Shown: piece by piece, positions 1-61,132 of the stretch
Numbering within the stretch: position 1 is the stretch's first letter
How the letters are laid out: every line of letters starts with the position of its first letter
DNA from: a virus
Taxonomy: Duplodnaviria; Caudoviricetes
Virus record (IMG/VR): IMGVR_UViG_3300032038_000048
Location: 22,360-86,359 of that record
Direction: 5' to 3' (one strand)
Length of the DNA: 64,000 nt
Notes under the pieces: model-generated
Told to the model about the DNA's origin: nothing
Databases searched by the model: none
What the model saw: only the letters and a program-made list of their open reading frames with translations
Made by a program: the position numbers and the translations under genes

Positions 1-3000
1 CTTATTGCCGTTTTCGTCAGTGTAACCAAAGATTTTCTTTCGCAGGTTTTCTATCATTGGTTCGATAAATCCAATTTTCAGGATTTCGCTTACCACACTC
101 TGCATGATGGACTTTGCGGTATCTCCGAAAGCCTTTGCCATATCCTCACCGTTTTCAAACGCGCTGACGAGAGCATCATTTATCTGGTCTGCCCACCCTT
201 TAATGTCTATTGCCCACAACTCCTTTGCAAGATCTTCGGAGAAGAAACGTATCTGGTCGTCAAGTTCGGCTATCTTACTCTTAGTTTCCTCTATGTCTTC
301 GTTGGACTTGTTCTTCATAGACTCCTGTTTATAGAGAATATCCAAATAATCCTGCCTCTCGTTTATCAAATTCTGATATTGTTGAGAGTAGCCGTTTCCC
401 GATGAGTTACGCAAGTAGTAATTCATCATATCTCGCATATCTTTGCTCTGAACCTGTTCGCCAGTCCAAAGGTTTGTTGCGTTCAGTCCTGTATAACCTA
501 GAGCATACGCCCTTCTAAGGTCGCCGCTATCATATCCTAATGTTCTCTCGCGGGATTTCAGGATAAGGGTTGTGTTGGCTTCGATCTTCTGCACATCCTT
601 GCGTAGTTTCTCTATCTCCCTTGCAAGTTGTTTGTCGTGAAGTTGGAATAACCCTGTAGTTAAACCTACTGCCGCTCCTGCCGCCATACCCCAAGGACCA
701 AGGGCGCTTAACGAAGATGCGCCTTGTAATGTGCCACCAAGCAGACCGGCAGCATCGCTCATTGTATTTGCAGCTCCCTCCATACCCATTGATGCAAACA
801 TTTCCGACAACATGCTAAGTCCGCTCTGTAATGTGCTAAAAGCGGTCATAAGGTCTTTTGCTTCATCGGTTAGTTCTACAAGTTGCTTGTTCAACTTTTC
901 GTAATGTTCCGCCTCTTTCTTTGCGTTAGCCTCATCTTCGCTACCCTCTTTGGCGTTCTTTTGTCTTTGTCTTGCTGCTTCCCCACGCGCCTTATAGTAA
1001 TTCATAAGTCCATCATTACCGCCAGCAAGGAACTGACCGAAAGCGCCCCTCTCTCCAAGGAAGCCCGTTGTACTCCACTCCTGACGAGCCTTATTGAGTT
1101 TTTGTTGTTCCTGCACAAATTCATCGGGGCTTATTATGCCTAACTCACGGAGTCTTTTTATTAGTTTTTCAACTGCTTCGGCAGAATTTTCAAATTCTTT
1201 GCGAGACAATGCTATTGCGTTATTATACAAGTTAGCGTAGTCTGCACTCATCTTCATTTTCTGCCAGTCAGCCTGCGTCTGTAGTATATTGTTAGCGTTG
1301 TCAGCCTGCTCTTGTGTAAAGCCGTTTTTACCAACAAGGGCATTATTAGCCTCTTTGTCTTGTCGTAATTTATCGTCTATCTTCTTTATCTCTGCGCTAT
1401 ACGACTTCAACCCTCCGACAACCTTTGCGTAATTTGAAATGTCTGTCTTTAATACGTTTCTTTGTAGGTCGCGCCACTTTTTTAGTGCATCTATAAGACC
1501 TTGCACTTTATCGTGACTTACACCCAATCCGCTTACATACTTCTCTAGTGCTTCATCATCCATATCCATAACCGAAGCAAAGTCTATGTTTGCATCCGAG
1601 AAGGCTTTCGTTAAACTATCGCGTATAGCGTTTGCTGAATTGCGCAAGTCAGGTTCGTTGCCATTCATACCTGCGAGTTGTCCTGCCATAACTTTGTCAC
1701 CAGTACTCTCCCTAACGATGTTATATATCTCCCATCTGCGTATCAGGTCGTCGAGTTGTTTCTTTGTAAACGAGGCAAAGTCCTTCAAGTTCTTCTTTGC
1801 ATCATCGAAGCCAACCTGCGTTATTGCATCTTTCAACTCCTTGATAACATCTAGCATATAACTGTTCTTGTGCCCTTTGGTATTATATAACCCTTCGGCT
1901 TCCGTAAGGAGTCTGCGGAGGCTGGCAGAATACTCTGTTATTCCTTTTTCTGCATCCCATGTAATACCTACCTTTTTTAATATGTCGGCATACTTCTTTT
2001 CAATCTCGGCAAAGGCATCTGCGGGTGAATATTTAAGTTCGTCTTGATATTTCTTGTACCACGAATAAGCATCTTTAACCAGTTTGATTTCTTCACGCAG
2101 TCGCTTTGCTTCCTTGTCTTCGTGAGAGCCCTTACTTCCACTCTTCTTTTTCTTGTCTTTATTGGGGTCTGTTTCGGGATAATTTTCGGCCTTTAGATAC
2201 TTCTCATCCTCCCTCTTAGCATTAAGGCTTTCGTAGAAGGGCATTATTTCGCGTTCAAGAATATTTTGCAGGGTGTTTGCAAAAGAATCGTTTCCTTGCA
2301 CACGCAAGGCAGCAATTCTGTCTTTTATTGTCTTTATTGCACCCTCCATTTGTTTGGCATCCATAATGAACGATGCACTTGCCTTTATGTTAAACTTCAC
2401 CCTAAGCGTCTGCTCTATATGCGATGCTTCAAACTTTAGATACTCTTTCTTTTTCTTTAGATCATCCTGCACAAGTTTTACAAAATCGTGCATGGAGTCT
2501 GTCATTTTTATTTTGGTCTTAACGCTGACATTTGTCTCAAAGATGTCCTTTGCTCGTTTCTGCCAGTCGCTTTTAAGGTCAACCAGGGTCTTACTTGTAT
2601 CAAGACCTTCCTTGAACATTTTCCTCCACGACTCCTTGACAATATCGGGCAGTTTACCACCGAACAGATTTTCTGCCCACGCGATTATGATAGCCGAGTT
2701 TTCTTCAAGTATCTTATTTAATTCATCTCCTGTGGTAGACTCTGTAACCATGCCAGCGGTAAGTGACTGGAATTTCTCTAACGCCATCTTCTTAAACATA
2801 TTCGCTGCTATGTCTGCACCTCCTGAACTCTGCGCTACAACAGAAACGAAATCAAACATTATCTGGTCTATCGTAGCAGGGTCGGAGATTTTTGCCTCTG
2901 AGAAAAACTTCATCATAGCCTCTTGCAGGTAATGTGCCTGCCCGTCGGGGTCATCATTGAAGTAATTAGTAAGCACGCCAATCATTGTCGGGGCAAACTC

Positions 3001-6000
3001 TTCAAAATCTTTGATAAGTTGCTCACGCTGGTCTTTTAGCGATTTTCTAAGAAACTTATTGCTTCTTGTTGCATCGTCGGCGAACTGAACGAACTCTTTG
3101 TTCATATTCTTGCCGAACATCCACCCATCAAGACCATCGATTTTTTTATTTCCACCATCGTCCTTAAAGTACTGCGCGTAAACCCACTCTCTGAACGCAT
3201 CTGCCCTTGAACCGAGATTCAAGCGTTTCTGAATTTCGTCTAGTTCACCACCCAGCTTGCCATTAACATTATCCAGCGTGGAGTCGGTTACTTCCATAAT
3301 GTCAGTACCAAACTGACGGTAACGCTGTGCAAAGTCAGCCATATCTTCTGTAAGATCGTCACTAAACGTACTGCCTATATCTTTTGCTGCATCTGCTATA
3401 ATATTACCTGTTGCAGCCGAAACATCATTGGCATGACGGATGCTCTCAAATTTTTTGATAATAGCCTTGAACTGCTCCACTTGATCCTCCATCTTATAAA
3501 TATCCACCAAGTCACCCTGATAGAATGGAGACATTGCCTGTAGTTTCTCTTGTAACTCCTGGAAAGTATCTAAACTTAGTTCATTGCGTATAGCATCATC
3601 GTCAAAGTCCGTCCTATAGGTTTTGACAAGTCCAGAGCCGGCATACTGTCTTTTATATAACCGCCTATCAAACAGACTGCCTTTTACGCTTTCAATCAGA
3701 TCGTTGGCTTCCTTTTCGTCGTTGTCACCTTCGGTACGCATTTGGTCTGCGATGCGTTCTGCCCTTGAAGCCATTTCTGAATTACGTTGTATAAGATGTG
3801 TGATACCTGCTATAGCGCCCATAAGAAGGGTTACAGGATTGGCGATTGCAGACATCATACCGCCAAACACGCTGCCTATTTTTGCGCCTAAATTACTGAC
3901 GGTATATCCAATACTTCTCAGGCTCCTACCCATGCCTGTCAACTGTGCGTTATATTGTGCCTGTAATTTACTAAGTCCAGCCAGTCTGCCCGCTGCTTCG
4001 CGATATGTCTTCGGTAGGTCTTTATCTACAGACATACTGCGCAAAGCCCGCTTACTTATGTTGCCTTCGCCAAGTGCCTTGTTTGCGGCAGTCATAAACT
4101 GCCTTGTCTCGCGCCAAGATGGAGCAAGCATTGGGTTGCCATATCTGCCAGCAAACCCTTGATCGAAACTACCAAAGAAACCTCCTTTTGCAATCGGCTG
4201 GCGAATGGCATTTTGCGCACGCGCCATATCCTTTAGATTGTTTACAACCACAGCACCCTGCTTTCCTGCCGTAGCGTTCACTGCCAGCATAGCCAGTTTA
4301 AGCATACCAAGGGGAACAAGTATATCTTTGATGATGGTAGCATACTTCTCCCAATTCGCTGTCAGTTCATTCAGAAGTTCCACACCACCCATCAATACAC
4401 CCTTATTATCCTGTCCCATTTCGGACATCATAATGTTGTAGTTATTGCGGAGGTTGCGAAGTTTACCACCAAGAGTATCAAACTGACGCTCCTGCATATT
4501 ATAGAAACGGCCACCAGGCTTATCCAAATCCATGATAACCTTCTCTACATCTTCAAAGGATATATCCTTGTTGCGCATACGCTTAAAGACTTCGCGTCTT
4601 GTTACGGAGGGATCTTGCTGACGATAGTATTTTGCCAGACCGCCAATAAGGTCTACACCTGCTGTCTCAAATTGCCTGTTTTGAATACCAGATAGATAAC
4701 CAAACGAACGAACGTGACCGTATGCAAGAATAAGACGCGACACATCAACCGAAAGGCCGGCACCAATATCCGACAACGCTTTCATTGTACTATACAAATC
4801 TTTCGTCTGTACACCAAACGCAGCCAATTGTCGTGTTGATTTCAGTAAGTCCTGAAATGTGTACGGCGATTGCTGTGAGAGGTCGCGGATAGCACCATAA
4901 AGTTCACCTGCTTTACCTGCGTTGGCGATAATAACCTCCAGTGATTTACGTTGCAGTTCCAGTTCGCCCGTTATCTGCGCCATATTCTTTATGAAAGACT
5001 GCGCCCCCCATACACTAAGGTATTGTGTAGCCATTGTTCGCAAGTCGGAGAGCACCTGAGATTGCTTTTGTGCTTGCGAGTTGGTATTGGCAAAAGCATG
5101 AGCCAACTTCTGCTCTTCTGCTGTCTGCTGTCCTGTGGCAGATGCAGCCCTCATTTTTTCTTCCGCAACCTTTTTCGTCGTTTCGGCTTGTACCCTTGCC
5201 TGTTCTGCTATAGGCTCCGTTCTTGCTTTCTGATAATCTACACCTGACTTAAATGAGGTAATACCATATCCTCCGCTATTTACAATAGCTTCAAGTACTT
5301 TTAGGTATCTTTCCAAGGCTGCAATCTGACTATAAATCTTCGTTGTGTCAACCATTACAGCATCGGCCTTAATAGCGGTTTTTGTAAGACTGGCTATTTG
5401 ACGCAACACAGAAGAATACTCCTTATACGACTCAGCAAGAGAGTTGTCGGGCTTCATTGCTGCCATCATTTCTTTCTTGATTGCAGATGCTGCATCGCTG
5501 ACATTTCTCTTTGCTTGCAGGAAAGCCTCAGATAAAGTGAGGGCTTTTGTGCTCGAAGAGTTGGTTGAGGCTATTTCAGATAGAGCTTGCTGATATTGCC
5601 TTAATTCATTGATAACCGCGCGTAATTGAGTGGTGTCAACACCCACCAAGGCACTCGCCTTGCTTGCAAGGGCTTCTAAGTTTGATATTGTTACAGTCAG
5701 TCTTTCTGCTTCCCTTTCGGCTTGTTTCATGTTTGAAGCCGCGAGAGAAAACTCTTGCGACATATCTTTCAGATTGAATTGTCTGGCTTGTGCGTTAATG
5801 AGAGCAAGCTGCTGTGCAAACTCTTTTACTGCATGAGCATCACCAAAATTACTAAAACCAGACATTAAGCTCTTTAGTCGTTCAAGACTGTCTATGGCTC
5901 CCTTGTGGGCAGACACATCAAGTCCTGCTTTACTTCGTTCGTTAGCAAGGATTTTGATGCGCTCCAACAAAAGCTGTGTCTTTACAAGTGTCAGGTTGTA

Positions 6001-7470
6001 TTGGTGTTCTGCATCCGTTCTAGCATTTATGGCTTTTGTTCGATTTACATCGTCCTTTGCGTCGGGGAAGATTATACGATAATCAGCATCCCTGCGCATT
6101 TCTGCGGGCGACCTATGAGTACCAAGTTCTCCGTTTTTGCTTATAATCTCCTGCAAAATACTCAGATACCTTCGCGCTGATTCAATCGCCTTGTTTAGCT
6201 TTTCATCTTGTTTTACCCCTGCTAATGCGTTTTCGTAGCGATGTAAAGCTTCTTCAAGTTTATGATACATTACGATTGCCTCACGCAGGTTTACTTCGTT
6301 GACCGCCTTTCGTTGCGCTTCTGTCAGTTCTTTAGGGGCAGAACCAATATCGTTTACCTTCTTTGAGAGTTCATCAAATAGTTTTTTTAATCTCTCTACC
6401 TCTTGCTCGTACTGCTTAATCTTTGCAGGGTCGCCAATCTGACTAAGAGCAAGGGAAAGTCGCACCGCAGCCTCCTGTATCTTGTCTGCCGCCACTTTAA
6501 GGTCATTAAAAACACCCGCTTCTTTAGTCAGACTTTGCAGGGCTTTGCTGGTGGCTTCTGCAAGTTGATTTTGCCCACTTGTATTAAGCGTAAGTCCACT
6601 TCCAATAGAGTTAAGTGCTGTGCTTAATTGCTCGCAAGCGGTTTTAAGACCGTTGGTGACGGTTAGCAGATCCTGTACAGCCTTAGCATCTGCCTCTGTT
6701 GCCGCTCTTTTCTGCTCTTGTGCCTGAGCCGACTTCTGAGCCATCTGTGCCGTTTGCCCTTCAATACCAAGGAACTTTTCTATCTGTGCAATTTCTCCCG
6801 AGCGATCAAACGGCGCACCCTTCATTGCTCTTATTTCCTGTAGGCGCTTCCATGCAGATTCCTCTTGTCGTATTTGTTCGATAATCTGCTGTCTTGCGTG
6901 GGAGTTACGAGCCTCTGCTTCCGCTTCTGCACTCATGGCTGTTGCAGCCTTTTGTGTTTCCTGGGTTACGCGCTGTTTGGATGCTGATACTTCATCGGTG
7001 CTCTGCTTTAATGTGTTCATACCAGAGATAGCGGCGCGTATAGTATGCTCATCCATCCCTAATACACGCTCCTGTATGCGCTTTACATCAACGGCACCAT
7101 TAAGTTCTTTTGTAAGACTTTCGTATCTTTTCGGTGCTACATTTTTTGCTGCATCTATCTGCTTTTGGAGTTCAGCAATACGCTCTACTGCGCCTTGCCA
7201 TATTTGTAGTCTGCGCTCAAAAGAAGAACCACCAACCTGAGAGAGTTTTTCGTTCAATTCATCAAACTTACGCATGAGAGGTTCCATTACCTTTCCGTCG
7301 CCAATGGATTTTAGATGCTGGATAAGGTCGTTCACCCCCTCCATTTCTACCTTTATCTTTAGGATGTTACCCATCCTTTTAGACGCATCCTTAAACTCGC
7401 GCTCTATCTCTTTGAGTCTTTTTTCGGCACTCTCAATACCGACCTCAAACATTAAAGTGTCGTTTGCCAT
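1..7470 (-). CDS. Tail tape measure protein (5' part; runs off the left edge, at least 2490 codons)
   Basis: Missing from the ORF track, which fits a stop lying outside the window. ATG at 7470 (MANDTLMFEVGIESAEKRLKEI). The same frame reads as protein at ~4440-5000 (LYGAIRDLSQQSPYTFQDLLKSTRQLAAFG...RQFDTLGGKLRNL, a tape-measure-domain pattern) and at nt 1-60. Helical A/E/K/Q-rich; lies downstream of the tail chaperone genes. Confidence 0.92.
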   Translation of the reverse strand, partial: MANDTLMFEVGIESAEKRLKEIEREFKDASKRMGNILKIKVEMEGVNDLIQHLKSIGDGKVMEPLMRKFDELNEKLSQVGGSSFERRLQIWQGAVERIAELQKQIDAAKNVAPKRYESLTKELNGAVDVKRIQERVLGMDEHTIRAAISGMNTLKQSTDEVSASKQRVTQETQKAATAMSAEAEAEARNSHARQQIIEQIRQEESAWKRLQEIRAMKGAPFDRSGEIAQIEKFLGIEGQTAQMAQKSAQAQEQKRAATEADAKAVQDLLTVTNGLKTACEQLSTALNSIGSGLTLNTSGQNQLAEATSKALQSLTKEAGVFNDLKVAADKIQEAAVRLSLALSQIGDPAKIKQYEQEVERLKKLFDELSKKVNDIGSAPKELTEAQRKAVNEVNLREAIVMYHKLEEALHRYENALAGVKQDEKLNKAIESARRYLSILQEIISKNGELGTHRSPAEMRRDADYRIIFPDAKDDVNRTKAINARTDAEHQYNLTLVKTQLLLERIKILANERSKAGLDVSAHKGAIDSLERLKSLMSGFSNFGDAHAVKEFAQQLALINAQARQFNLKDMSQEFSLAASNMKQAEREAERLTVTISNLEALASKASALVGVDTTQLRAVINELRQYQQALSEIASTNSSSTKALTLSEAFLQAKRNVSDAASAIKKEMMAAMKPDNSLAESYKEYSSVLRQIASLTKTAIKADAVMVDTTKIYSQIAALERYLKVLEAIVNSGGYGITSFKSGVDYQKARTEPIAEQARVQAETTKKVAEEKMRAASATGQQTAEEQKLAHAFANTNSQAQKQSQVLSDLRTMATQYLSVWGAQSFIKNMAQITGELELQRKSLEVIIANAGKAGELYGAIRDLSQQSPYTFQDLLKSTRQLAAFGVQTKDLYSTMKALSDIGAGLSVDVSRLILAYGHVRSFGYLSGIQNRQFETAGVDLIGGLAKYYRQQDPSVTRREVFKRMRNKDISFEDVEKVIMDLDKPGGRFYNMQERQFDTLGGKLRNLRNNYNIMMSEMGQDNKGVLMGGVELLNELTANWEKYATIIKDILVPLGMLKLAMLAVNATAGKQGAVVVNNLKDMARAQNAIRQPIAKGGFFGSFDQGFAGRYGNPMLAPSWRETRQFMTAANKALGEGNISKRALRSMSVDKDLPKTYREAAGRLAGLSKLQAQYNAQLTGMGRSLRSIGYTVSNLGAKIGSVFGGMMSAIANPVTLLMGAIAGITHLIQRNSEMASRAERIADQMRTEGDNDEKEANDLIESVKGSLFDRRLYKRQYAGSGLVKTYRTDFDDDAIRNELSLDTFQELQEKLQAMSPFYQGDLVDIYKMEDQVEQFKAIIKKFESIRHANDVSAATGNIIADAAKDIGSTFSDDLTEDMADFAQRYRQFGTDIMEVTDSTLDNVNGKLGGELDEIQKRLNLGSRADAFREWVYAQYFKDDGGNKKIDGLDGWMFGKNMNKEFVQFADDATRSNKFLRKSLKDQREQLIKDFEEFAPTMIGVLTNYFNDDPDGQAHYLQEAMMKFFSEAKISDPATIDQIMFDFVSVVAQSSGGADIAANMFKKMALEKFQSLTAGMVTESTTGDELNKILEENSAIIIAWAENLFGGKLPDIVKESWRKMFKEGLDTSKTLVDLKSDWQKRAKDIFETNVSVKTKIKMTDSMHDFVKLVQDDLKKKKEYLKFEASHIEQTLRVKFNIKASASFIMDAKQMEGAIKTIKDRIAALRVQGNDSFANTLQNILEREIMPFYESLNAKREDEKYLKAENYPETDPNKDKKKKSGSKGSHEDKEAKRLREEIKLVKDAYSWYKKYQDELKYSPADAFAEIEKKYADILKKVGITWDAEKGITEYSASLRRLLTEAEGLYNTKGHKNSYMLDVIKELKDAITQVGFDDAKKNLKDFASFTKKQLDDLIRRWEIYNIVRESTGDKVMAGQLAGMNGNEPDLRNSANAIRDSLTKAFSDANIDFASVMDMDDEALEKYVSGLGVSHDKVQGLIDALKKWRDLQRNVLKTDISNYAKVVGGLKSYSAEIKKIDDKLRQDKEANNALVGKNGFTQEQADNANNILQTQADWQKMKMSADYANLYNNAIALSRKEFENSAEAVEKLIKRLRELGIISPDEFVQEQQKLNKARQEWSTTGFLGERGAFGQFLAGGNDGLMNYYKARGEAARQRQKNAKEGSEDEANAKKEAEHYEKLNKQLVELTDEAKDLMTAFSTLQSGLSMLSEMFASMGMEGAANTMSDAAGLLGGTLQGASSLSALGPWGMAAGAAVGLTTGLFQLHDKQLAREIEKLRKDVQKIEANTTLILKSRERTLGYDSGDLRRAYALGYTGLNATNLWTGEQVQSKDMRDMMNYYLRNSSGNGYSQQYQNLINERQDYLDILYKQESMKNKSNEDIEETKSKIAELDDQIRFFSEDLAKELWAIDIKGWADQINDALVSAFENGEDMAKAFGDTAKSIMQSVVSEILKIGFIEPMIENLRKKIFGYTDENGNK

Positions 7471-8235: not shown

Positions 8236-8577
8236 ATGAAAAACATTCTATTAGCATTATTCCTATGTATTCCACTGTTATGTGGAGCTCAGACAAAAGT
8301 AAAGCAGTATATCCGCGTCTTTATCCCCGATAATGCCACGGGTTCATCTATCTCTGGTGCCGATGCTTACAGTAAGCAGCAATTGGAGCCTATCATGCAA
8401 GGCGAGACAAAACTAAAATTCAAGTCAGATACCGAAGGGATAAATTATCTGGCACTGCACGGATGGGAACTGGTTCCGCTTAATCTCTCCAGTGGCTACC
8501 ATTATTTTGTCAGAGAGGTTGAGTTAACTGATAAAATCATAGTAGAACCGAAAAATTTTGACAAAAAAGAGAAGTAG
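8236..8577 (+). CDS. Secreted/periplasmic small protein (moron, opposite strand to the tail operon)
   Basis: MKNILLALFLCIPLLCGAQ signal-peptide-like N-terminus; own promoter; track start is GTG 8230. Confidence 0.75.
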   Translation: MKNILLALFLCIPLLCGAQTKVKQYIRVFIPDNATGSSISGADAYSKQQLEPIMQGETKLKFKSDTEGINYLALHGWELVPLNLSSGYHYFVREVELTDKIIVEPKNFDKKEK

Positions 8578-8619
8578 TTAACAAAATTCCAAAATGGGCT
8601 ACATTCGCTTTACTATCAT

Positions 8620-22184: not shown

Positions 22185-22752
22185 AACAGCAGAAGCAAAG
22201 AAACTAAAGACGAGTGTAGAGAACCTTGTCTTTGCCGACCTTCTCTCTATTGGCTATAGTGAGGCGGATGCGTATATTATCTCACACCCAGGCGACTCAC
22301 AAATGAGCACACAGTATAGGGATAGCAATATGCGTAGAATAACAAGGAGCTCCGCTTTTAGAGAACTTTGCGAAGAGAGAAAGCGCAGTAATACCACTCG
22401 GCTGGCATTTTCGGGCAATCTTGAAGATGTTGAACTTATTGATGCAGAGGAAACGGCAAAGGAAATTCTAAAAATAGCAAGAATGATGCCTGAGCACTCC
22501 AAAGAGAGGGGTGAGATGTTTATGAAGTATGCCGATCTGACGCGCAAAAATGACGCAGCAACGGAGGAATCCACAGATGCCATCAACTTCTATTTTCCCA
22601 TCAAATGCGACCAATGCCCGTTACTGACAGCATACAATGATTTCCTTAAGCGAAACAAAACAAAAGAAGTGCGCCCCGTAGAAATGGAGCGTATAATAAG
22701 GCTTTCTCATAGTATCATAAAGAAAGCCATAAAAGAAGAGAGTGAGGATTAA
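22165..22752 (+). CDS. Hypothetical protein, possibly terminase small subunit
   Basis: N-terminal HTH-like LLSIGYSEADAY; last gene of the packaging operon. Confidence 0.5.
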   Translation: MDLSTSKTAEAKKLKTSVENLVFADLLSIGYSEADAYIISHPGDSQMSTQYRDSNMRRITRSSAFRELCEERKRSNTTRLAFSGNLEDVELIDAEETAKEILKIARMMPEHSKERGEMFMKYADLTRKNDAATEESTDAINFYFPIKCDQCPLLTAYNDFLKRNKTKEVRPVEMERIIRLSHSIIKKAIKEESED

Positions 22753-45122: not shown

Positions 45123-45974
45123 ATGACAGAAGTATTATCATTTGAACAAGAGTTTACACGCCGTCAGCCTGGACGCGTACAAATCATACGTTTTATGCGA
45201 GAGGCGATTGGTGTGAATGAAGTAGAGTGGTCTGATCTTACGCGTATCAATTTGATAAGCGTAGCAGACTATATTAAAGACCGTGTGTCGGCAAACACAG
45301 CGGTTGTATATTTTGCTGTTCTAAAGGCGTTTCTCGGCACTTTTACGGATGAAGGTATAATCCCTTGCTCCGACCCGAAAAACGCGCTTAAAGCGAAAAA
45401 AGCACCACAACAAAACGTAGCCTTGACCGAAGATGAAATGAACCGTATCGTAGAGTACTACAAAAAAGAATACCGCAATGCCAGTACAGCAGAAAGGAAT
45501 GTGCTGACACTGTTCCTTATTGAGTGTTTCTGCGGTGCGCGTTCATGTGACGTGGAAGTAATTACACCTGCGAACATTACAGGCGGAAGACTGATATATG
45601 TATCAAAAAAGACAAAGGTTCTGGCGCAGGTGCCAGCACACAAAATGCTACCGATGCTCTTAAAAAGGAAACCTCACTGTGAGTATTCAACAATGACAAA
45701 AAACCGCATAATCAAAAGCGTGGCAAAGAAATGTGGAATAACCACACCAATCACGATATATTATCGCGGAAAAATGCAGACAAGGCCGAAGTACGAATAC
45801 TTAGGTACACACACTGCAAGAAGAACCTTTGCAAGCATACTGGCCGCAAAAGGTGTTCCTATAATGGAAATATCACAATATATGGGACATACAAATATTT
45901 CCATGACCGAGCATTACATCAAAGTAGATACCCAGAACGCTTCACCAGAAGCAATGAAGTTTTTTGGAAGATAA
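45123..45974 (+). CDS. Tyrosine recombinase without arm-binding domain (Xer/Cre-like)
   Basis: Full catalytic set: CGARSCD (R), SKKT (K), THTARR (HxxR), MGHTN, EHY. Confidence 0.88.
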   Translation: MTEVLSFEQEFTRRQPGRVQIIRFMREAIGVNEVEWSDLTRINLISVADYIKDRVSANTAVVYFAVLKAFLGTFTDEGIIPCSDPKNALKAKKAPQQNVALTEDEMNRIVEYYKKEYRNASTAERNVLTLFLIECFCGARSCDVEVITPANITGGRLIYVSKKTKVLAQVPAHKMLPMLLKRKPHCEYSTMTKNRIIKSVAKKCGITTPITIYYRGKMQTRPKYEYLGTHTARRTFASILAAKGVPIMEISQYMGHTNISMTEHYIKVDTQNASPEAMKFFGR

Positions 45975-47730: not shown

Positions 47731-48414
47731 TTATTTTACACTCCAGTCTTGTGTCGGAAACTCTAGTTCCGCCTGCTCGCATTTCTTATTCTTGTCGGAT
47801 GTATAATAAATCCAGTCTAACACAGTCTTACCTTTATATCCCTTCTCCCAAACGAACCACGCATAGCTCACCGCACTGCTTGTATGTTCTTCAAAATTAC
47901 CGTTCTTACTACATATCAGCCTGCGCACGAACTGTAGGACAAATTTAGGTGGATTGATAGAATATATATCGTTATATCTACCCTGTCCTTCCGCAAATGT
48001 AGTCTTTACAAACATACACACATAGTCACCTTTCTTTAGTAATTTTAGTGCGTGTACGATATATTCCGCAGCATACTTGTATGGTGGGTTGGTAAGTATG
48101 CAATGCACCTCCGATGGCACTTCTGTCTGCTCAAAGAAGTTTACCCCGCCGACACCATAACCACGCTCTACAAGGTCGGATGATATGACATTATATCCAC
48201 GTTCCTCCAGTCGTTTTGATAAGTGCCCTTCACCGCAACTCGGTTCCCATATAATACCAGGCAATTCCATATAGTCCAGAAGTGCATCTATCGCTTTGGG
48301 GTCGGTGGCATAGAAATCATGCTGCTCCCTCTCACCTTCTGTATGGTTACTCGCACCGATCATCTTAAACCATGAGTACCACTTGTCAGTCCAGTCTTTA
48401 TCGTTTTGTTTCAT
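47731..48414 (-). CDS. Orphan amino-methyltransferase (NPPY), probably DNA N6-adenine
   Basis: DFYATDP, WEPSCGEGHL (SAM-binding), ILTNPPY. Confidence 0.8.
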   Translation of the reverse strand: MKQNDKDWTDKWYSWFKMIGASNHTEGEREQHDFYATDPKAIDALLDYMELPGIIWEPSCGEGHLSKRLEERGYNVISSDLVERGYGVGGVNFFEQTEVPSEVHCILTNPPYKYAAEYIVHALKLLKKGDYVCMFVKTTFAEGQGRYNDIYSINPPKFVLQFVRRLICSKNGNFEEHTSSAVSYAWFVWEKGYKGKTVLDWIYYTSDKNKKCEQAELEFPTQDWSVK

Positions 48415-48418
48415 GTAT

Positions 48419-48825
48419 GCTGTATATCACCCTTAGTTTTTTATCACCCCACCACCATAAGGGTAATGGGGCAATACTTATGCTCACACTCCCTTAATCA
48501 ACGCAGTCAAAGTAAGATGCAGGTTACGGTTCGTTTGCTTTAACGCTGCGACCTTTACTTGTGCCTCCGCGATGCTCAACTCCTTTTTGTCTATCTGACC
48601 GAGGAAATCACTTAAATACACATGGGCTGGTTTGCCCTGAATCCTGTTAAAATCTGAAAATTTGCTCATCTGTATATCAACTTATTTATAGGTAATTAAC
48701 ATCAGTACTGGCTTGGCGTGTAGTGGCAACCGGCTGTATATCACTCTTATTTGTAATACCATGTGCCCTGCTGCACCGGAAATACTTTGGCTGTATATCA
48801 CCCTTATTTGTAGATGATTAACACC
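48419..48825 (-). CRISPR. Degenerate CRISPR-like array downstream of the dead Cas12f/TnpB-like gene
   Basis: Plus-strand repeat GCTGTATATCACCCTTATTTGTAGATGATTAACACC at 48790-48825; 24-nt partial copy at 48733; degenerate copy at 48669-48703; short partial copy at 48419; intervening uniques of 33 and 29 nt. Confidence 0.7.
48484..48669 (-). CDS. 61-aa hypothetical protein lying between two repeat copies
   Basis: ATG directly abuts the repeat 3' end (GATATACAG ATG). Confidence 0.5.
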   Translation of the reverse strand: MSKFSDFNRIQGKPAHVYLSDFLGQIDKKELSIAEAQVKVAALKQTNRNLHLTLTALIKGV

Positions 48826-48924
48826 AAATTCCGTATAATCGCCTGCGTCATAAATATTTAGGTGATTTATGGAGTGATAAAATCCTCCATTTAAGGCACT
48901 ACAGCGTACCCGTTTATATTGTTT
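48826..48924 (-). ncRNA. Candidate tracrRNA/omegaRNA-like scaffold
   Basis: Between the effector stop and first repeat; GCTGTA..CCTTA and TATCACTC are complementary to the repeat 3' half; internal ATGGAG/CTCCAT hairpin. Confidence 0.5.
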
Positions 48925-50061
48925 TTATTCTTTGTCTACAACAAGTTTAACACCTGCCATCTTACACTTGTAGGCTATCTTCTCCTTAAACCCATAGTAA
49001 CTCCAGTTGCGCAGGACAAACGGCTCGCCGTTCTGGTTGTCTTCTTTGGCTTTGTCTTCACGCCTTGTCTGGTCTAATAGCATCAGTTTGCCACATTTGT
49101 GCTTCACAGCTAAATTTACCAGCATACGACTATAGGTGTGGAGTTTTGTGTCTACATAATTATTCTCCTTGTTGTGCCAGCGTTCTATTGCCTTGCACTT
49201 CGCTTTTCTTCCTTTGCCACCCACCGAATAACGGTTGTTTATCTGGCACCTTCGCACTGCTTCCTGTATCTGACGACGACGGTAGTTAAATTCTTCTTTT
49301 GTGCCGATCTCAAAAACTTTTGGACCACTGTCATACTCTCGCGCCGTTTTTACATCGCAGGTACATACTACTGGGTTCATTACGCCTAAGTAAGCGTAAA
49401 GCGTTTTATCTTCGTTGAGTTTGTTTTCTTGTTTTGGTATATCCACGCAAAGTAGAAAGTATATCTTTTTCCCATCCACCTGAATACTGGAGGTACACAT
49501 TTTATATTCACCACTTACCACTCGCTCAACTATCAGCCGATTGCCGCTCCTATCCCTGCCGAAGCGCATTTGAAAGGGTATATTCATCACCTCAAAGAAA
49601 CAACCTGTGCGCTGCTCCCCATCACCGCCTGTATATTCGGCGAAGCGCAGATTTTTATAAAGCGAAGCCTTGAGAGGTATCGGCATATTGCTTTTGTATG
49701 AGCGTAATGACTTATTCCACATACCTTTTTTACGGTCATCTGCATACATTTTTTGTACGTTTTGCAGAACACTGGGTATCATACCCATATAAGCATTACC
49801 TTTAAAAGCCTCGCTTGCTGCTACATACGGAGCGTTCTGTTTAGTCGCTTTCTGGCCTTTACAGCCAAGGTATTCTATTTTCTCCTTATCTTCGGCACTA
49901 AGGTATGGCATTGTGTTATCTAAGGCAAACAAATGACTAACCGCCATGTTTGCCACTTTTACTGCCACATCTCTATTAGCATAAAGTCTGTCATAGTATG
50001 CCCTACGTTGGTCTTTATCATTCTCACAGATAAAAACCTCAATTTTGCGTGTTATTACCAT
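48925..50061 (-). CDS. Nuclease-dead Cas12f/TnpB-like RNA-guided DNA-binding protein (378 aa)
   Basis: ITRKIEV start, FGRDRSGNR, SSIQVDGKKIYFLLCVDIP, bridge-helix region HTYSRMLVNLA, LRNWSYYGFKEKIAYKC..AG. RuvC-I reads AYLG instead of xDLG, RuvC-II reads LLDQ instead of xEDL, and the protein ends before the Zn ribbon and RuvC-III. Confidence 0.8.
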   Translation of the reverse strand: MVITRKIEVFICENDKDQRRAYYDRLYANRDVAVKVANMAVSHLFALDNTMPYLSAEDKEKIEYLGCKGQKATKQNAPYVAASEAFKGNAYMGMIPSVLQNVQKMYADDRKKGMWNKSLRSYKSNMPIPLKASLYKNLRFAEYTGGDGEQRTGCFFEVMNIPFQMRFGRDRSGNRLIVERVVSGEYKMCTSSIQVDGKKIYFLLCVDIPKQENKLNEDKTLYAYLGVMNPVVCTCDVKTAREYDSGPKVFEIGTKEEFNYRRRQIQEAVRRCQINNRYSVGGKGRKAKCKAIERWHNKENNYVDTKLHTYSRMLVNLAVKHKCGKLMLLDQTRREDKAKEDNQNGEPFVLRNWSYYGFKEKIAYKCKMAGVKLVVDKE

Positions 50062-50094
50062 CGTTATATTTGTTTTTTGTACTACATAAACCCT

Positions 50095-50196
50095 GCTGCA
50101 TACACCCCCAACACTCGTATTATCTACAGGTGCTCAATGGCATACTGCTTGCGGAGCTCGGCTGCATACACCCCCAACACTCGTATTATCTACAGG
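50095..50196 (-). CRISPR. Mini CRISPR array: two identical 36-nt repeats, one 30-nt spacer
   Basis: GCTGCATACACCCCCAACACTCGTATTATCTACAGG at 50095-50130 and 50161-50196; spacer TGCTCAATGGCATACTGCTTGCGGAGCTCG (plus strand). Confidence 0.85.
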
Positions 50197-50276
50197 AGGT
50201 ATTTCATAAGTAGTTGATACTCTTATGTTAAGGCGGTGCAGCCCGCCCGAAAAGTTATATCGTTTCCTTCCATCCT

Positions 50277-50924
50277 TTATTCTCTCCCCCTTAAATCGTC
50301 ACCCTGAAAGCAAATGTCCTTTGTCAGAACACGCAATCTGCTGACGGTGCGTATATCGTATCTCGCTTCAAGTGAAGGTATGTCTGGTATAACATTGCCC
50401 GCTGCATCCCTGGCTATAGTCTTGCGCAGGTTAGTTGTCAGAACAAGCAGTTTATTATGCCGTTCCGCTTCATCCACAAGCTCAGAAAAGTACTTATGTG
50501 TGGTACCATATACCTTTACATTGTCCTCCTGCCCTACATCATCAATAGACAAGAGTTTATATTGACTGATCTCACTGTATTTCTCATTCAATTCGCGAGA
50601 GGTAAAACATGGTATTATTTTCCGAAGGTAATACTCAAAGATTACAGGTATTATCTTCTGCGCAATCAAAGTCTTACCTCTTCCACAACTCCCATACAAA
50701 AGCAAACCTTTACCTTTGTTATCCGAGAGCCACTCTACAACCTCTTCATACTCTGGCTGCCATACGGCACGCTCACCGAGAAAATGATACAAACCGCGCA
50801 TAAGAAGATTTCGGGCATCGGGTATCTTAAAATGTACCGTGCTTTCTCCTGTCGCCCTGCCATCAAATATTCTTTGATGTTCTGTCTGTGCCAGTTCCGT
50901 TAAATTCTTTATCTTTCTTACCAT
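50277..50924 (-). CDS. DnaC/IstB-like AAA+ helicase loader
   Basis: GLLLYGSCGRGKT, LLSIDDVGQE, VLTTNL. Confidence 0.85.
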   Translation of the reverse strand: MVRKIKNLTELAQTEHQRIFDGRATGESTVHFKIPDARNLLMRGLYHFLGERAVWQPEYEEVVEWLSDNKGKGLLLYGSCGRGKTLIAQKIIPVIFEYYLRKIIPCFTSRELNEKYSEISQYKLLSIDDVGQEDNVKVYGTTHKYFSELVDEAERHNKLLVLTTNLRKTIARDAAGNVIPDIPSLEARYDIRTVSRLRVLTKDICFQGDDLRGRE

Positions 50925-51658
50925 TTGTCGTTGTCGTACATATTTGGTTTGTGTTGTAGGTTCATCGCACTCTCGATATTAGAAGTAATACCTTTGCTTT
51001 GCTGACCTCTATCCATGTTATTATTCGCCCATCTTGCCAGTCTGAGATTTGTGTCCCATGTGCGCTGTTGTTCAAAACGCATCCTTGTGTGTGACTTGTT
51101 CGGCTCAGTCCAGTAGTCAAAAAACTCTCTCACCATCGCCTTGCCATACTTATTAACGTATGGAACAAGGGAATTATAGAAACGCTGCTTCCGACCTTTA
51201 ATATCCGCATTACCTGTGCTAGGTGTGTCGCAGGGTGTGTCGGTAGGTGTGTCGCAGGGTGTGTCGGTAGGTGTGTCGCAGACCCCCTCTAACTTATTGT
51301 CACCTTGCAAGTTAGGTGTGTCGCAGGGTGTGTCGCAGGGTGTGTCGGTAGGTGTGTCGGTAGGTGTGTCGGTAGGTGTGTCGGTAGGTGTGTCGGTAGG
51401 TGTGTCGCTAATGGTTGTTTCGTTATTCTCCGACCTCCCTATATACAACCCTTGACCGTCTATCTTTTTTAAGAAACGCCTGACTTTAGATACAGTCCAG
51501 TTCAACTCCAGTGCAAGTGTACGAAGTGTTATTATCGCACTGCGCTGTTTATTATCAGCAAGCATTAAAAGATATAACAATGCACCACGCTCATCGTTGC
51601 TCTTACATACTCTGAGTAGCGTTCTTGGCACTTGTATATATCCTTTTAATGTTGCCAT
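50918..51658 (-). CDS. Replication initiator (lambda O/DnaD-like layout) with internal tandem repeats
   Basis: N-terminal wHTH (LRTLALELNWTVSKVRRFLKK), DTP[T/C] repeats, C-terminal EFFDYWTE...QQRTWD...RLARW; upstream of the loader. Confidence 0.8.
   Translation of the reverse strand: MATLKGYIQVPRTLLRVCKSNDERGALLYLLMLADNKQRSAIITLRTLALELNWTVSKVRRFLKKIDGQGLYIGRSENNETTISDTPTDTPTDTPTDTPTDTPTDTPCDTPCDTPNLQGDNKLEGVCDTPTDTPCDTPTDTPCDTPSTGNADIKGRKQRFYNSLVPYVNKYGKAMVREFFDYWTEPNKSHTRMRFEQQRTWDTNLRLARWANNNMDRGQQSKGITSNIESAMNLQHKPNMYDNDKW
51222..51410 (+). repeat. 12-bp tandem repeats GGTGTGTCG(CAG/GTA), 5 + 8 copies; iteron-like
   Basis: 51222-51281 (5 units) and 51315-51410 (8 units). Confidence 0.9.
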
Positions 51659-55634: not shown

Positions 55635-56846
55635 ATGAAATACCCTACAACAAGGTTTGTCTTCGACCGAAAGAAGACTGCAACAAAGAATAAAGATGCC
55701 CTTATTCAAGTAGAAATCCTGTTCGGAAACAAAAAGAAATATATTTCCACTGGCGTAAGGGTGTACAAGGAGCAGTGGAGCGACAAAAACCACATTATCA
55801 AGAGAAATGATATGCTCTCTCTGAATGACAGAATTGAAAGCGTAAAGAAAAACATTGATGGCTACATAAATGGTCTAATAGAAAATTCTACCGCTTTCGA
55901 GTGGGTAGAATTTCAGCGGTTTATTGCCCTCCAGAACAATAAAAGAGAAGAAGAAACATTTCTGGAGTATATGGAGCGCAGAATTGAAGAAAGAAAAGAT
56001 ATATCCATTGGAACAAAACGCAACCACGTTAAAGTACTTAACATTCTAAAACTCTATAACGGCATCGTAACCTTCAAAGAACTAACAAAGCAGAATATCC
56101 TCTCGTTTTACGAATGGTTACAAAAAAGAAAAGTAACAAAGATAGCATCCGATGGTACGCAGATAAAACAACCGATGGCACAGCAAACTATATCAAGTTA
56201 TATTAAGTGCCTGAATGTCTATATTCACGATGCTCTCTCTCATGAGATAATCAGCAACAACCCAACCGTCAATCTGAAAATAAAGCGCGGAGAAAGCGAA
56301 CCAGACAGATGGCTATCAGAAGAAGATGTCGCCAAAATAATCAACAAACCAATGCCCACAGGCAGCCTCCAAAGGGTGAAGGACAGATTTTTAATACAAG
56401 TCTACACTGGCTTGTCATTCGTTGACCTAATGGATCTTAACATAAGTAAGATAGAAACAACCAGCACTGGCTCAGTTATCGTTGGGAATAGGATAAAAAC
56501 AAAAGAGCCTTACGTTATCGCAGTCCTGCCTGAGATAGAAGAAATACTAAAGAAATACGATTATAAGCTGCCGCCAATCAGTAATGAACAGTATAATATC
56601 CGTCTAAAAGTGATGGCTGAGATATGCGGTATCAAGAAAAGACTCGCATCTCATTGGGCGCGTCGTACCTTTGCTTGTCTAATGATTAACAGAGGTGTAA
56701 GGGCAGAAACCCTTGCTCAAATAATGGGACACTCGGACACCAGGACAACACTGGAGTTCTATGCGAAGATGAAAAAAGAAACCGTTGTATCTGAAATGAC
56801 TACTGCGATGAAGAAGAAAGTCCGCAAGAAGAAAGTGCGCAAATAA
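55635..56846 (+). CDS. int: Phage integrase (Bacteroidota IntDOT-like tyrosine recombinase)
   Basis: N-terminal arm-binding region (FVFDRKK...YISTGVRV), YTGLSFVD with Ser at the first catalytic Arg position, SHWARRTF, MGHSD, EFY. Confidence 0.9.
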   Translation: MKYPTTRFVFDRKKTATKNKDALIQVEILFGNKKKYISTGVRVYKEQWSDKNHIIKRNDMLSLNDRIESVKKNIDGYINGLIENSTAFEWVEFQRFIALQNNKREEETFLEYMERRIEERKDISIGTKRNHVKVLNILKLYNGIVTFKELTKQNILSFYEWLQKRKVTKIASDGTQIKQPMAQQTISSYIKCLNVYIHDALSHEIISNNPTVNLKIKRGESEPDRWLSEEDVAKIINKPMPTGSLQRVKDRFLIQVYTGLSFVDLMDLNISKIETTSTGSVIVGNRIKTKEPYVIAVLPEIEEILKKYDYKLPPISNEQYNIRLKVMAEICGIKKRLASHWARRTFACLMINRGVRAETLAQIMGHSDTRTTLEFYAKMKKETVVSEMTTAMKKKVRKKKVRK

Positions 56847-60784: not shown

Positions 60785-61132
60785 ATGAACCACGATATGA
60801 AAGCATACAATGAACTTGTAGGTAAGATAAAGCAGGCTTACTTGAACGCACAAACTAACAGCACAAAGGCTGTGCTGGAAGATATTCTGCCCGAACTCAA
60901 AGAGAGTGCGGATGATAAGATAAGAAAAGGTATAAAAAGTGTTTTAAAACACTATAAAGAAAGTGGAGAAGTTGTTTGTCCTTACCCATTTGTTTCAATA
61001 GATGATGCGCTTGCTTGGCTTGAAAAGCAAGGTGAATCTGATGAAACAAAGGCAAAGATGTTTCTTATGAATAAAGGTTATCCGATTGACGCAAATGGTA
61101 CATTTCCAACATACGATGAGATATATTTCTAA
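60785..61132 (+). CDS. Hypothetical protein
   Basis: ILPELKESADDKIRK...ALAWLEKQGE. Confidence 0.7.
   Translation: MNHDMKAYNELVGKIKQAYLNAQTNSTKAVLEDILPELKESADDKIRKGIKSVLKHYKESGEVVCPYPFVSIDDALAWLEKQGESDETKAKMFLMNKGYPIDANGTFPTYDEIYF

Follow-up and report, generated by a model that had tools for sequence, protein, structure and literature searches.

The DNA analysed here, which we call the window, is a stretch of 64,000 nucleotides (nt) that runs from base 22360 to base 86359 of a linear IMG/VR virus record of 86,359 bp, rated 82% complete by CheckV. Close relatives of this phage are contigs binned into uncultured Prevotella/Prevotellaceae metagenome-assembled genomes (MAGs), and near-identical DNA is present in bovine gut metagenomes from 11 studies; we regard it as a Prevotella phage of the cattle gut, probably temperate. 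On its minus strand the window carries an open reading frame (ORF) of 378 amino acids (aa) whose product is confirmed, by sequence comparison over its full length with the PDB entry 9n9c and by structure modelling, as a phage-borne, nuclease-dead homolog of Cas12f (dCas12f). Two guide modules flank the gene, each consisting of a structured scaffold of ~55 nt with CRISPR-like repeats after it, and a small companion ORF follows. The upstream scaffold is of the kind that we call tracr-like, after the trans-activating CRISPR RNA (tracrRNA). In minus-strand order the features are:

50197-50249, minus: upstream scaffold, tracr-like, with hairpin P1 (loop GCTGCA), hairpin P2 and tail ATACCTCC (regex scan; 63.3 bits with covariance model R1, of which this copy is a training member)
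50161-50196, minus: upstream repeat 1, 36 nt, perfect (repeat family D3, 100% identity)
50131-50160, minus: spacer U1, 30 nt (29/30 match to a phage-like metagenome contig)
50095-50130, minus: upstream repeat 2, 36 nt, perfect
48925-50061, minus: dCas12f gene, 378 aa, RuvC-dead and C-terminally truncated (homology, alignments, structure model)
48853-48912, minus: downstream scaffold with P1 (loop GCTGTA), P2 and tail ATCACC (65.7 bits with R1)
48790-48823, minus: downstream repeat A, 34 nt, with a hairpin of its own
48757-48789, minus: spacer D_A, 33 nt
48733-48756, minus: downstream repeat B, of which only the 24-nt 3' core is kept
48704-48732, minus: spacer D_B, 29 nt
48670-48703, minus: downstream repeat C, degenerate and terminal, 34 nt, ending one base ahead of the ATG of the 61-aa ORF
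48484-48669, minus: companion ORF, 61 aa (a homolog adjoins dCas12f in 7/7 loci with flanks)
48418-48441, minus: fourth repeat remnant, just ahead of the start of the DNA methyltransferase gene

The 378-aa protein and its guide arrays

When the 378-aa protein was compared with PDB chains by phmmer, the best match was 9n9c_A, annotated as 'Nuclease-deactivated Cas12f' (365 aa), with an E value of 5.1e-57 over residues 4-375. Active Cas12f chains gave E values of 1e-35 or weaker and aligned only from about residue 74 onward, and TnpB chains scored 1e-13 or weaker. In alignments to active Cas12f the RuvC-I Asp is replaced by Tyr (AYLG) and the RuvC-II Glu by Leu (MLLDQ), and the chain stops ~90 residues short of the Zn-ribbon/RuvC-III Asp of the full-size homolog at L044, from another Bacteroidota genome, in which a Cas12f1-like TNB domain was found. 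Since all three RuvC elements are lost, the protein is predicted to be unable to cut DNA. A preliminary description of this DNA had called the protein TnpB/Cas12f-like and noted the loss of the RuvC-I Asp, the RuvC-II Glu and the Zn-ribbon/RuvC-III end, and phmmer and the alignments agree with it on each count. The fold comparison with TnpB/Cas12f that it proposed pointed the same way: Foldseek placed our AlphaFold2 model (pLDDT 81.5) closest to the dCas12f structures 9n9c/9n9m (E 5e-27, TM 0.60-0.64), next to Cas12f nucleases, with TnpB, Cas12k and Cas12m far behind (the Cas12m matches were weak). The protein thus shares with the dCas12f clade its fold and sequence homology across REC/WED/RuvC, the loss of catalytic residues and of the C-terminal end, and a structured guide RNA that adjoins the gene and has its guide at the 3' end; it does not have the catalytically active Cas12f of type V-F. 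At E<=1e-5 we found 835 homologs, the best 120 of which are at least 76% identical and 371-419 aa long (nearly all 376-394 aa). Among GenBank phages there was no close homolog, the best match showing 27% identity.

The upstream scaffold abuts the first repeat without a gap, giving a fused single guide of ~89 nt plus spacer, and its tail ATACCTCC folds onto GGGGGTGTAT of the repeat. The downstream scaffold begins past the stop codon of the dCas12f gene, and its tail ATCACC forms a duplex of -10.1 kcal/mol with GGGTGAT in the repeat. With an array of 36+30+36 nt and a tracr-like scaffold that pairs with the repeat, the upstream module has the layout of a type V-F locus. The second array that the preliminary description placed ahead of the gene is present, as two perfect repeats, and the unique 33- and 29-nt spacers after the gene lie where it put them. 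The repeat positions likewise stood, but a length of 36 nt is true of the upstream repeats only, those downstream being 34 nt, a 24-nt core and a degenerate 34 nt; the tracr-like segment is also real, but there are two scaffolds and not one.

The 12-mer GTGATATACAGC has exactly three copies in the 64 kb, all inside 400 nt, and the same scaffold/array architecture recurs in every relative that we examined; on these two grounds a chance origin of the repeats is excluded. Since the 12-mer is confined to one such stretch, we also rejected the idea that the repeat serves the whole phage as a promoter or regulatory motif. Rfam returned nothing at gathering score anywhere in the window. A match to repeat A at locus L014 (genome G222) turned out to be a 73-nt tandem repeat with no array. 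In one DNA sequencing run (X1), contigs over 48435-48825 had repeat copies joined across differing inserts of 30-34 nt, so related strains hold other spacers at the downstream array. One bovine gut RNA-seq run contained a 219-nt contig identical to 48665-48883, which takes in only the scaffold end and the array; we regard this as weak evidence, a hint of guide-array expression. Two other RNA runs (X18 and X20) were set aside as expression evidence, being probably DNA and covering the gene only.

We also observed that terminal or degenerate repeats stand directly at the start codons of the next genes (the companion ORF and methyltransferases), an arrangement that recurs at ~8470-8590 of locus L007 and ~7400 of locus L008. 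Processing of the RNA at repeats so placed may release the mRNA that lies downstream.

Scaffold structure and kinship with other Cas12f systems

A scaffold consensus of 14 base pairs in two hairpins was derived from 16 modules of eight loci, in which 11/14 pairs show compensatory changes. The covariance model R1, built from these 16 modules, finds the scaffold in every phage-type viral locus scanned, and a regex search found at least one scaffold in 32/32 loci. Across 49 distinct R1 hits, whose alignment was fitted to R1 and hence leans towards the structure, 97.8% of cells are paired and double changes occur at 13/14 pairs; the covariation score was 0.688, compared with 0.161 for shuffled alignments (reached in 0/500) and 0.05-0.10 for slid partners. 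The scaffold also matches its own repeat in each module. The six bases of its P1 loop are exactly complementary to the six that end the cognate repeat, with four co-varying loop/repeat-end pairs (GCTGTA/TACAGC, GCTGCA/TGCAGC, GTTGCA/TGCAAC and GTTGTA/TACAAC), and the window holds two of these versions, GCTGTA/TACAGC downstream and GCTGCA/TGCAGC upstream, each a 6/6 complement. The scaffold tail (ATACCT-like) pairs with an AGGTAT-like segment directly 5' of the repeat-end hexamer, and the mean energy of the tail:repeat duplex is -7.2 kcal/mol for cognate and -4.5 kcal/mol for non-cognate combinations. Because both loop and tail are complementary to the repeat, the scaffold is predicted to act as a tracr-like clamp on each repeat.

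We considered whether the locus is a decaying, functionless remnant of a captured CRISPR-Cas12f locus, which would account for the degenerate and partly truncated downstream repeats, the dead effector and the lack of adaptation genes. The strong compensatory co-variation of scaffold and repeat within single loci argues against this, as do the conservation of hundreds of full-length homologs, the variation of spacers between strains and the perfect state of the upstream array, and we hold a remnant to be extremely improbable.

The relatives of the phage protein fall into three groups. In a tree of 21 sequences (eight from phages, five sigmaE-linked and eight full-size Cas12f; midpoint-rooted, with long branches and small sampling) all three clades were monophyletic, and the truncated phage and sigmaE-linked clades were sisters (100/100). 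Among Prevotellaceae genomes, loci L032-L038 encode full-size Cas12f homologs of 461-496 aa beside ordinary CRISPR arrays. R1 matches directly ahead of these arrays at 31-48 bits, so that the phage modules and these active, type V-F-like loci have the same scaffold RNA in the same position, and the arrays likewise have 36-nt repeats, ~30-nt spacers and repeat 3' halves like those of the phage. The effectors there differ in being full-size, host-encoded and 30-36% identical to the phage protein, and the phage system departs from type V-F CRISPR-Cas in its dead effector and in having no Cas1 in the phage records. Loci L032-L038 are a likely source of the phage modules.

In other Bacteroidota, loci L041, L042, L043 and L045 encode a dCas12f of 364-365 aa with an extracytoplasmic function (ECF) sigma factor of 201-271 aa directly upstream and a scaffold match directly downstream (37.7 bits at L043 and 29.9 bits at L045, weak at L042 and L041); these are further examples of the published dCas12f-sigmaE type. 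In that type a 365-aa dCas12f is encoded after rpoE and uses one guide of 85-105 nt with a fixed 14-16-nt target sequence, no tracrRNA having been found (Hoffmann et al., Nature 2026, PMC13472631), and the C-terminal domain (CTD) of the recruited sigma factor complements the truncated RuvC lobe (PMC13472631; bioRxiv 10.1101/2025.06.10.658880). The phage protein has in this type (PMC13472631; 9n9c/9n9m, bioRxiv 10.1101/2025.06.10.658880) its best full-length sequence and fold match, and shares with it the truncation, the RuvC loss, a homologous guide scaffold with the guide at the 3' end, and a sister position in the tree. Unlike dCas12f-sigmaE, it is phage-encoded, has no rpoE in its operon or elsewhere in the phage, and is served by arrays of unique 29-33-nt spacers with one scaffold per array instead of a single fixed 14-16-nt guide, the fused first unit of the upstream module being a partial likeness to the latter; its targets, described below, are mobile elements, hit mostly within ORFs and on both strands, whereas dCas12f-sigmaE addresses promoter-like sites at susCD, two-component and its own loci. 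The phage system thus combines the array and tracr-like layout of active systems with the dead, truncated protein of sigmaE systems.

Sigma70_r2 was not found in the 86-kb record (G000), in a CheckV-complete 73-kb relative (G405) or in a third relative (G404), nor Sigma70_r4_2 in the 86-kb record. Cas1 was likewise absent from all three records, a statement that does not extend to cas2, cas4 and tnpA, which were not searched as families, while one host MAG (G003) has two Cas1. The absence of a sigma factor and cas1 near the gene, noted in the preliminary description, therefore holds for the whole 86-kb record by family search. As a positive control, an ECF sigma factor lies directly upstream of 4/5 chromosomal 364-365-aa homologs from other Bacteroidota. 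In four host MAGs the dCas12f-linked sigma factor had no match that was intact or full-length, and the control genome gave both its copies; the sole match in the host MAGs is a weak, partial one in G030 that covers residues 30-229 of the 271-residue query (E 8e-5) and is interrupted by four in-frame stops.

RNA-guided activation as in dCas12f-sigmaE would require a host sigma factor or the companion protein as adaptor, and transcripts, such as antisense RNAs through rival elements, would start ~46 bp downstream of the site that the effector binds. It would fit the sister relationship of the two truncated clades and their common C-terminal truncation, and also the R1 matches at the guide position downstream of sigmaE-type dcas12f at L043 and L045; moreover, the truncated RuvC is complemented by the sigmaE CTD in the published structure, so the phage protein could need a partner too, and a conserved companion exists. 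This companion measures 61-84 aa across loci and has no match in Pfam, PHROG or PDB, with no similarity above noise to any PDB chain, sigmaE entries included; its atlas neighbours are viral hypothetical proteins. That no sigma domain was seen in the record or the complete relative and no intact CTD-type sigma in the four host MAGs speaks against activation. So do the placement of the targets, mostly inside mobile-element ORFs in both orientations and not upstream of operons, and the variable spacers of ~30 nt, where sigmaE systems have fixed guides of 14-16 nt. The companion's lack of similarity to the sigmaE entries counts on the same side. We consider activation quite unlikely.

Two further groups of dead effectors bear comparison. 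An rpoE-less, CRISPR-array-associated dCas12f cluster with a covarying putative guide RNA upstream of the array has been described and proposed to repress, the example being from a Chitinophagaceae MAG, where the target lies at the promoter of an RND efflux system (PMC13472631, Extended Data Fig. 1a,b). The phage system resembles this cluster in having a dead Cas12f beside CRISPR arrays with a covarying guide RNA, and differs from it as described in its phage carriage and mobile-element targets, a comparison made by description only and not by sequence. The text of PMC13472631 outside its references has no mention of 'phage', and our literature searches returned no description of a phage-borne version. 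TldR proteins are TnpB-like nuclease-dead repressors, including the prophage-encoded fliC-TldR (bioRxiv 10.1101/2023.11.30.569447). They too combine a guide RNA with a miniature protein whose RuvC is dead, repress, and are in some cases prophage-borne; however, TldR is TnpB-derived and has a single omega-RNA overlapping the 3' end of its gene and one fixed host target, whereas the phage protein is Cas12f-derived, array-fed and multi-target.

Spacer targets and the proposed silencing of rival elements

U1, the spacer of the upstream array, has a 29/30 match in two JGI metagenome contigs (L024 and L025), inside a 105-aa ORF and in sense orientation. Two PHROG families are represented on the L025 contig, and one of its genes shares 59% identity with the window ORF at 60785-61132; the 250-aa protein of L025 has no close homolog among GenBank phages. 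The context of the U1 protospacer recurs in DNA run X1, which also contains the relatives of the phage, and U1 has no exact match in the viral contig collection. Two further loci (L022 and L023) have a 22-nt stretch in common with U1 in another gene context, and were treated as uncertain. Seven more protospacers were found with the spacers of related loci. Three spacers of L008 match their own MAG (34/34, 31/31 and 28/29), as do two of L007 (28/29 and 27/28) and one of L031 (29/30), and one spacer of the viral locus L050 has its match (27/30) in a gene at L053, a related phage locus. The guides of L006 had only 18-nt matches to their own MAG (E ~0.5), which we did not count.

One target is an island of ~5.5 kb beside the suf operon with an integrase, an excisionase-like HTH_17 gene, a 171-aa gene and a Phage_CRI Rep; here the protospacer abuts the ATG of the HTH_17 gene. 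A related target element carries HTH_17, an AAA_25/DnaB-like primase-helicase and DUF6371. Another island of ~5.5 kb, between RNR and FeoB, has an integrase, HTH_17, DUF6291 and a DnaC-like loader that is 42% identical to that of the phage itself, and its protospacer lies 35 nt into DUF6291. A further target is the B ATPase of a Mu-like transposable prophage (Mu A/B module). All 8/8 protospacers found thus lie in mobile elements or phage-like contigs. The preliminary description had named host defence or receptor genes and competing elements as possible targets: the second proposal is supported by one window spacer and seven spacers of relatives, and the first found no match among the eight protospacers. 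No window guide matches elsewhere in the 86-kb record and none of the five guides of the complete 73-kb relative matches its own genome, and on this basis we rejected self-regulation of the phage.

As a separate observation, elements of ~5.5-6.5 kb integrated in Prevotellaceae form a family (L009 3369-8807, L039 3410-~9000, and L010; L009 and L010 belong to different MAGs and carry related elements). They carry an integrase, a ~250-aa gene and HTH_17, together with a replication module that varies between them (a Phage_CRI Rep, a primase-helicase or a DnaC-like loader), and no recognisable capsid or relaxase gene was seen in the three. They could be satellites or mobilisable elements.

The identity of the dead Cas12f, the tracr-like segment, the guides on both sides of the gene and the lack of a sigma factor all uphold the earlier idea of an RNA-guided effector. 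We consider it probable, judging from the sequence data, that this is a phage-borne, sigma-independent dCas12f which, by RNA-guided binding, silences or blocks mobile elements that compete with the phage in its host; its most likely role is to silence competitors, and not to regulate host genes. The computed basis for this is the homology and catalytic loss, the structure and co-variation of the scaffold, the spacer matches to mobile elements, the absence of self-matches and the absence of sigma factor and cas1 from the phage; from it we infer RNA loading, DNA binding, repression and their timing. The early replication and recombination operon (RecT to methyltransferase, minus strand) would be transcribed through the two guide modules. 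The P1 loop and 3' tail of the scaffold would clamp the last ~14 nt of every repeat, the first unit yielding a fused single guide and later units a tracr:crRNA pair (scaffold RNA with CRISPR RNA). Once loaded with these guides, the 378-aa dCas12f (probably dimeric, as its solved relative is) would form R-loops on DNA that matches them. Without cutting, it would block the transcription or replication of small integrated elements, Mu-like prophages or related phages that share the phage's Prevotella host, by sitting at their regulatory, replication or early genes. The phage would then be neither parasitised nor excluded, and the host chromosome would stay unbroken. Since the phage records have no cas1 and the host MAG G003 has two, spacers are probably taken up in trans by host adaptation genes of Cas12f type.

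Several observations weigh against this reading. D_A and D_B, two of the three window spacers, had no target in 400 sampled host-family genomes (the best matches were repeat-like, E>0.001), no exact 20-22-mers in viral contigs and only chance-level matches in GenBank phages. There is no consistent target-adjacent motif (TAM): the 5' flanks of the four best matches are TTCC, ATCC, TTCC and TTCA, so that TCN is seen in 4/8, and the flanks are unrelated in the other four, which have repeat-proximal (seed) mismatches. The spacer search proposed in the preliminary description, for targets with a shared TAM or protospacer-adjacent motif (PAM), therefore succeeded for U1 and failed for D_A and D_B, with a motif in half of the protospacers. 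Of the eight protospacers, five lie antisense to the gene they target and most are inside ORFs; by analogy with dCas12a, a block of elongation by Cas12 would be better served by another geometry. Contigs can be mixed in MAG bins, although two targets adjoin housekeeping genes. Finally, the conservation of the companion ORF is a hint of some partner activity, for which silencing by binding does not account. The flank of the array itself is CAGC, which differs from TCN and would spare the array.

The placement of the protospacers, within ORFs and without strand preference as in ordinary DNA-targeting immunity, is what one would expect if the dead effector were a targeting module that recruits a nuclease, helicase or recombination factor (the companion, RecT/YqaJ or a host protein), so that targets are destroyed or recombined. 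The gene does stand in an operon with RecT and the YqaJ exonuclease, the companion is conserved, and Cas12k and type IV are precedents for recruitment by nuclease-less effectors. However, no nuclease or helicase is consistently adjacent (L031 is flanked by RusA and a helicase, other loci by methyltransferases), and destroying host-integrated elements would break the chromosome of the lysogen. Recruitment is in our view unlikely. The two window spacers without a found target leave room for a system that mainly reprograms host genes (receptors, defence or metabolism) in infection or lysogeny, with the mobile-element matches a minority; TldR and the rpoE-less dCas12f cluster have been proposed as host-gene repressors (PMC13472631). 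With 8/8 protospacers in mobile elements or phage-like contigs, and no target of the downstream array in the 400 host-family genomes, we find control of host genes distinctly improbable.

Silencing of rivals by a dead Cas12f would have parallels in use. Type IV-A, Cas12m and Cas12c provide binding-only or nuclease-less interference, and effectors carried by mobile elements are aimed at rivals, some borrowing host adaptation genes; the CRISPR system of phage ICP1 targets the integrated PLE satellite, and ICP1 cuts its target. The likeness to all of these is in the mode of use, the proteins being unrelated or distantly related. We tentatively propose, as a possibility that goes further than the silencing itself, that the dCas12f of Prevotella phages is a natural, sigma-independent, non-cutting CRISPR-interference weapon against satellite-like elements, prophages and related phages, the counterpart of ICP1 against PLE, and at the same time a living intermediate between active Cas12f and sigmaE activators, in which the 61-84-aa companion replaces the sigmaE CTD on the truncated RuvC lobe. 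If true, dead Cas12f-type proteins would have, besides the repression of host genes by TldR and sigma-coupled activation, a third use, namely mobile-element warfare without DNA breaks by abundant rumen and gut Prevotella phages. One scaffold RNA common to active Cas12f, phage dCas12f and sigmaE-dCas12f loci would form an evolutionary bridge. Testable questions follow about DNA binding by the 378-aa protein with a tracr/crRNA pair and multiplexed arrays, about the TAM, and about the policing of satellite-like elements by phages in Bacteroidota. The putative DNA-binding module, very compact and naturally multiplexed, may also be of practical interest.

The surrounding phage genome

The dCas12f gene belongs to a minus-strand operon with the order RecT, YqaJ exonuclease, 103-aa ORF, DnaD-like protein, DnaC-like loader, 378-aa ORF, 61-aa ORF, DNA methyltransferase and DUF4494. 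Tyrosine recombinases lie on either side of it:

55635-56846: tyrosine recombinase/integrase, 403 aa
52754-53587, minus: RecT
50277-50924, minus: DnaC-like loader
47731-48414, minus: DNA methyltransferase
45123-45974: tyrosine recombinase/integrase, 283 aa

The two tyrosine recombinases of the record point to a probably temperate phage rather than a purely lytic one, a correction to the lytic-cycle setting first suggested for the operon. The DnaD-like replication gene (50918-51658, minus) contains a 12-nt unit repeated in tandem in two clusters (51196-51432; 13 registers), which look like iterons, i.e. an origin within the initiator gene as in lambda O. At the far end of the window, a very long ORF of at least 2490 aa occupies 1-7470 on the minus strand and extends past the window start.

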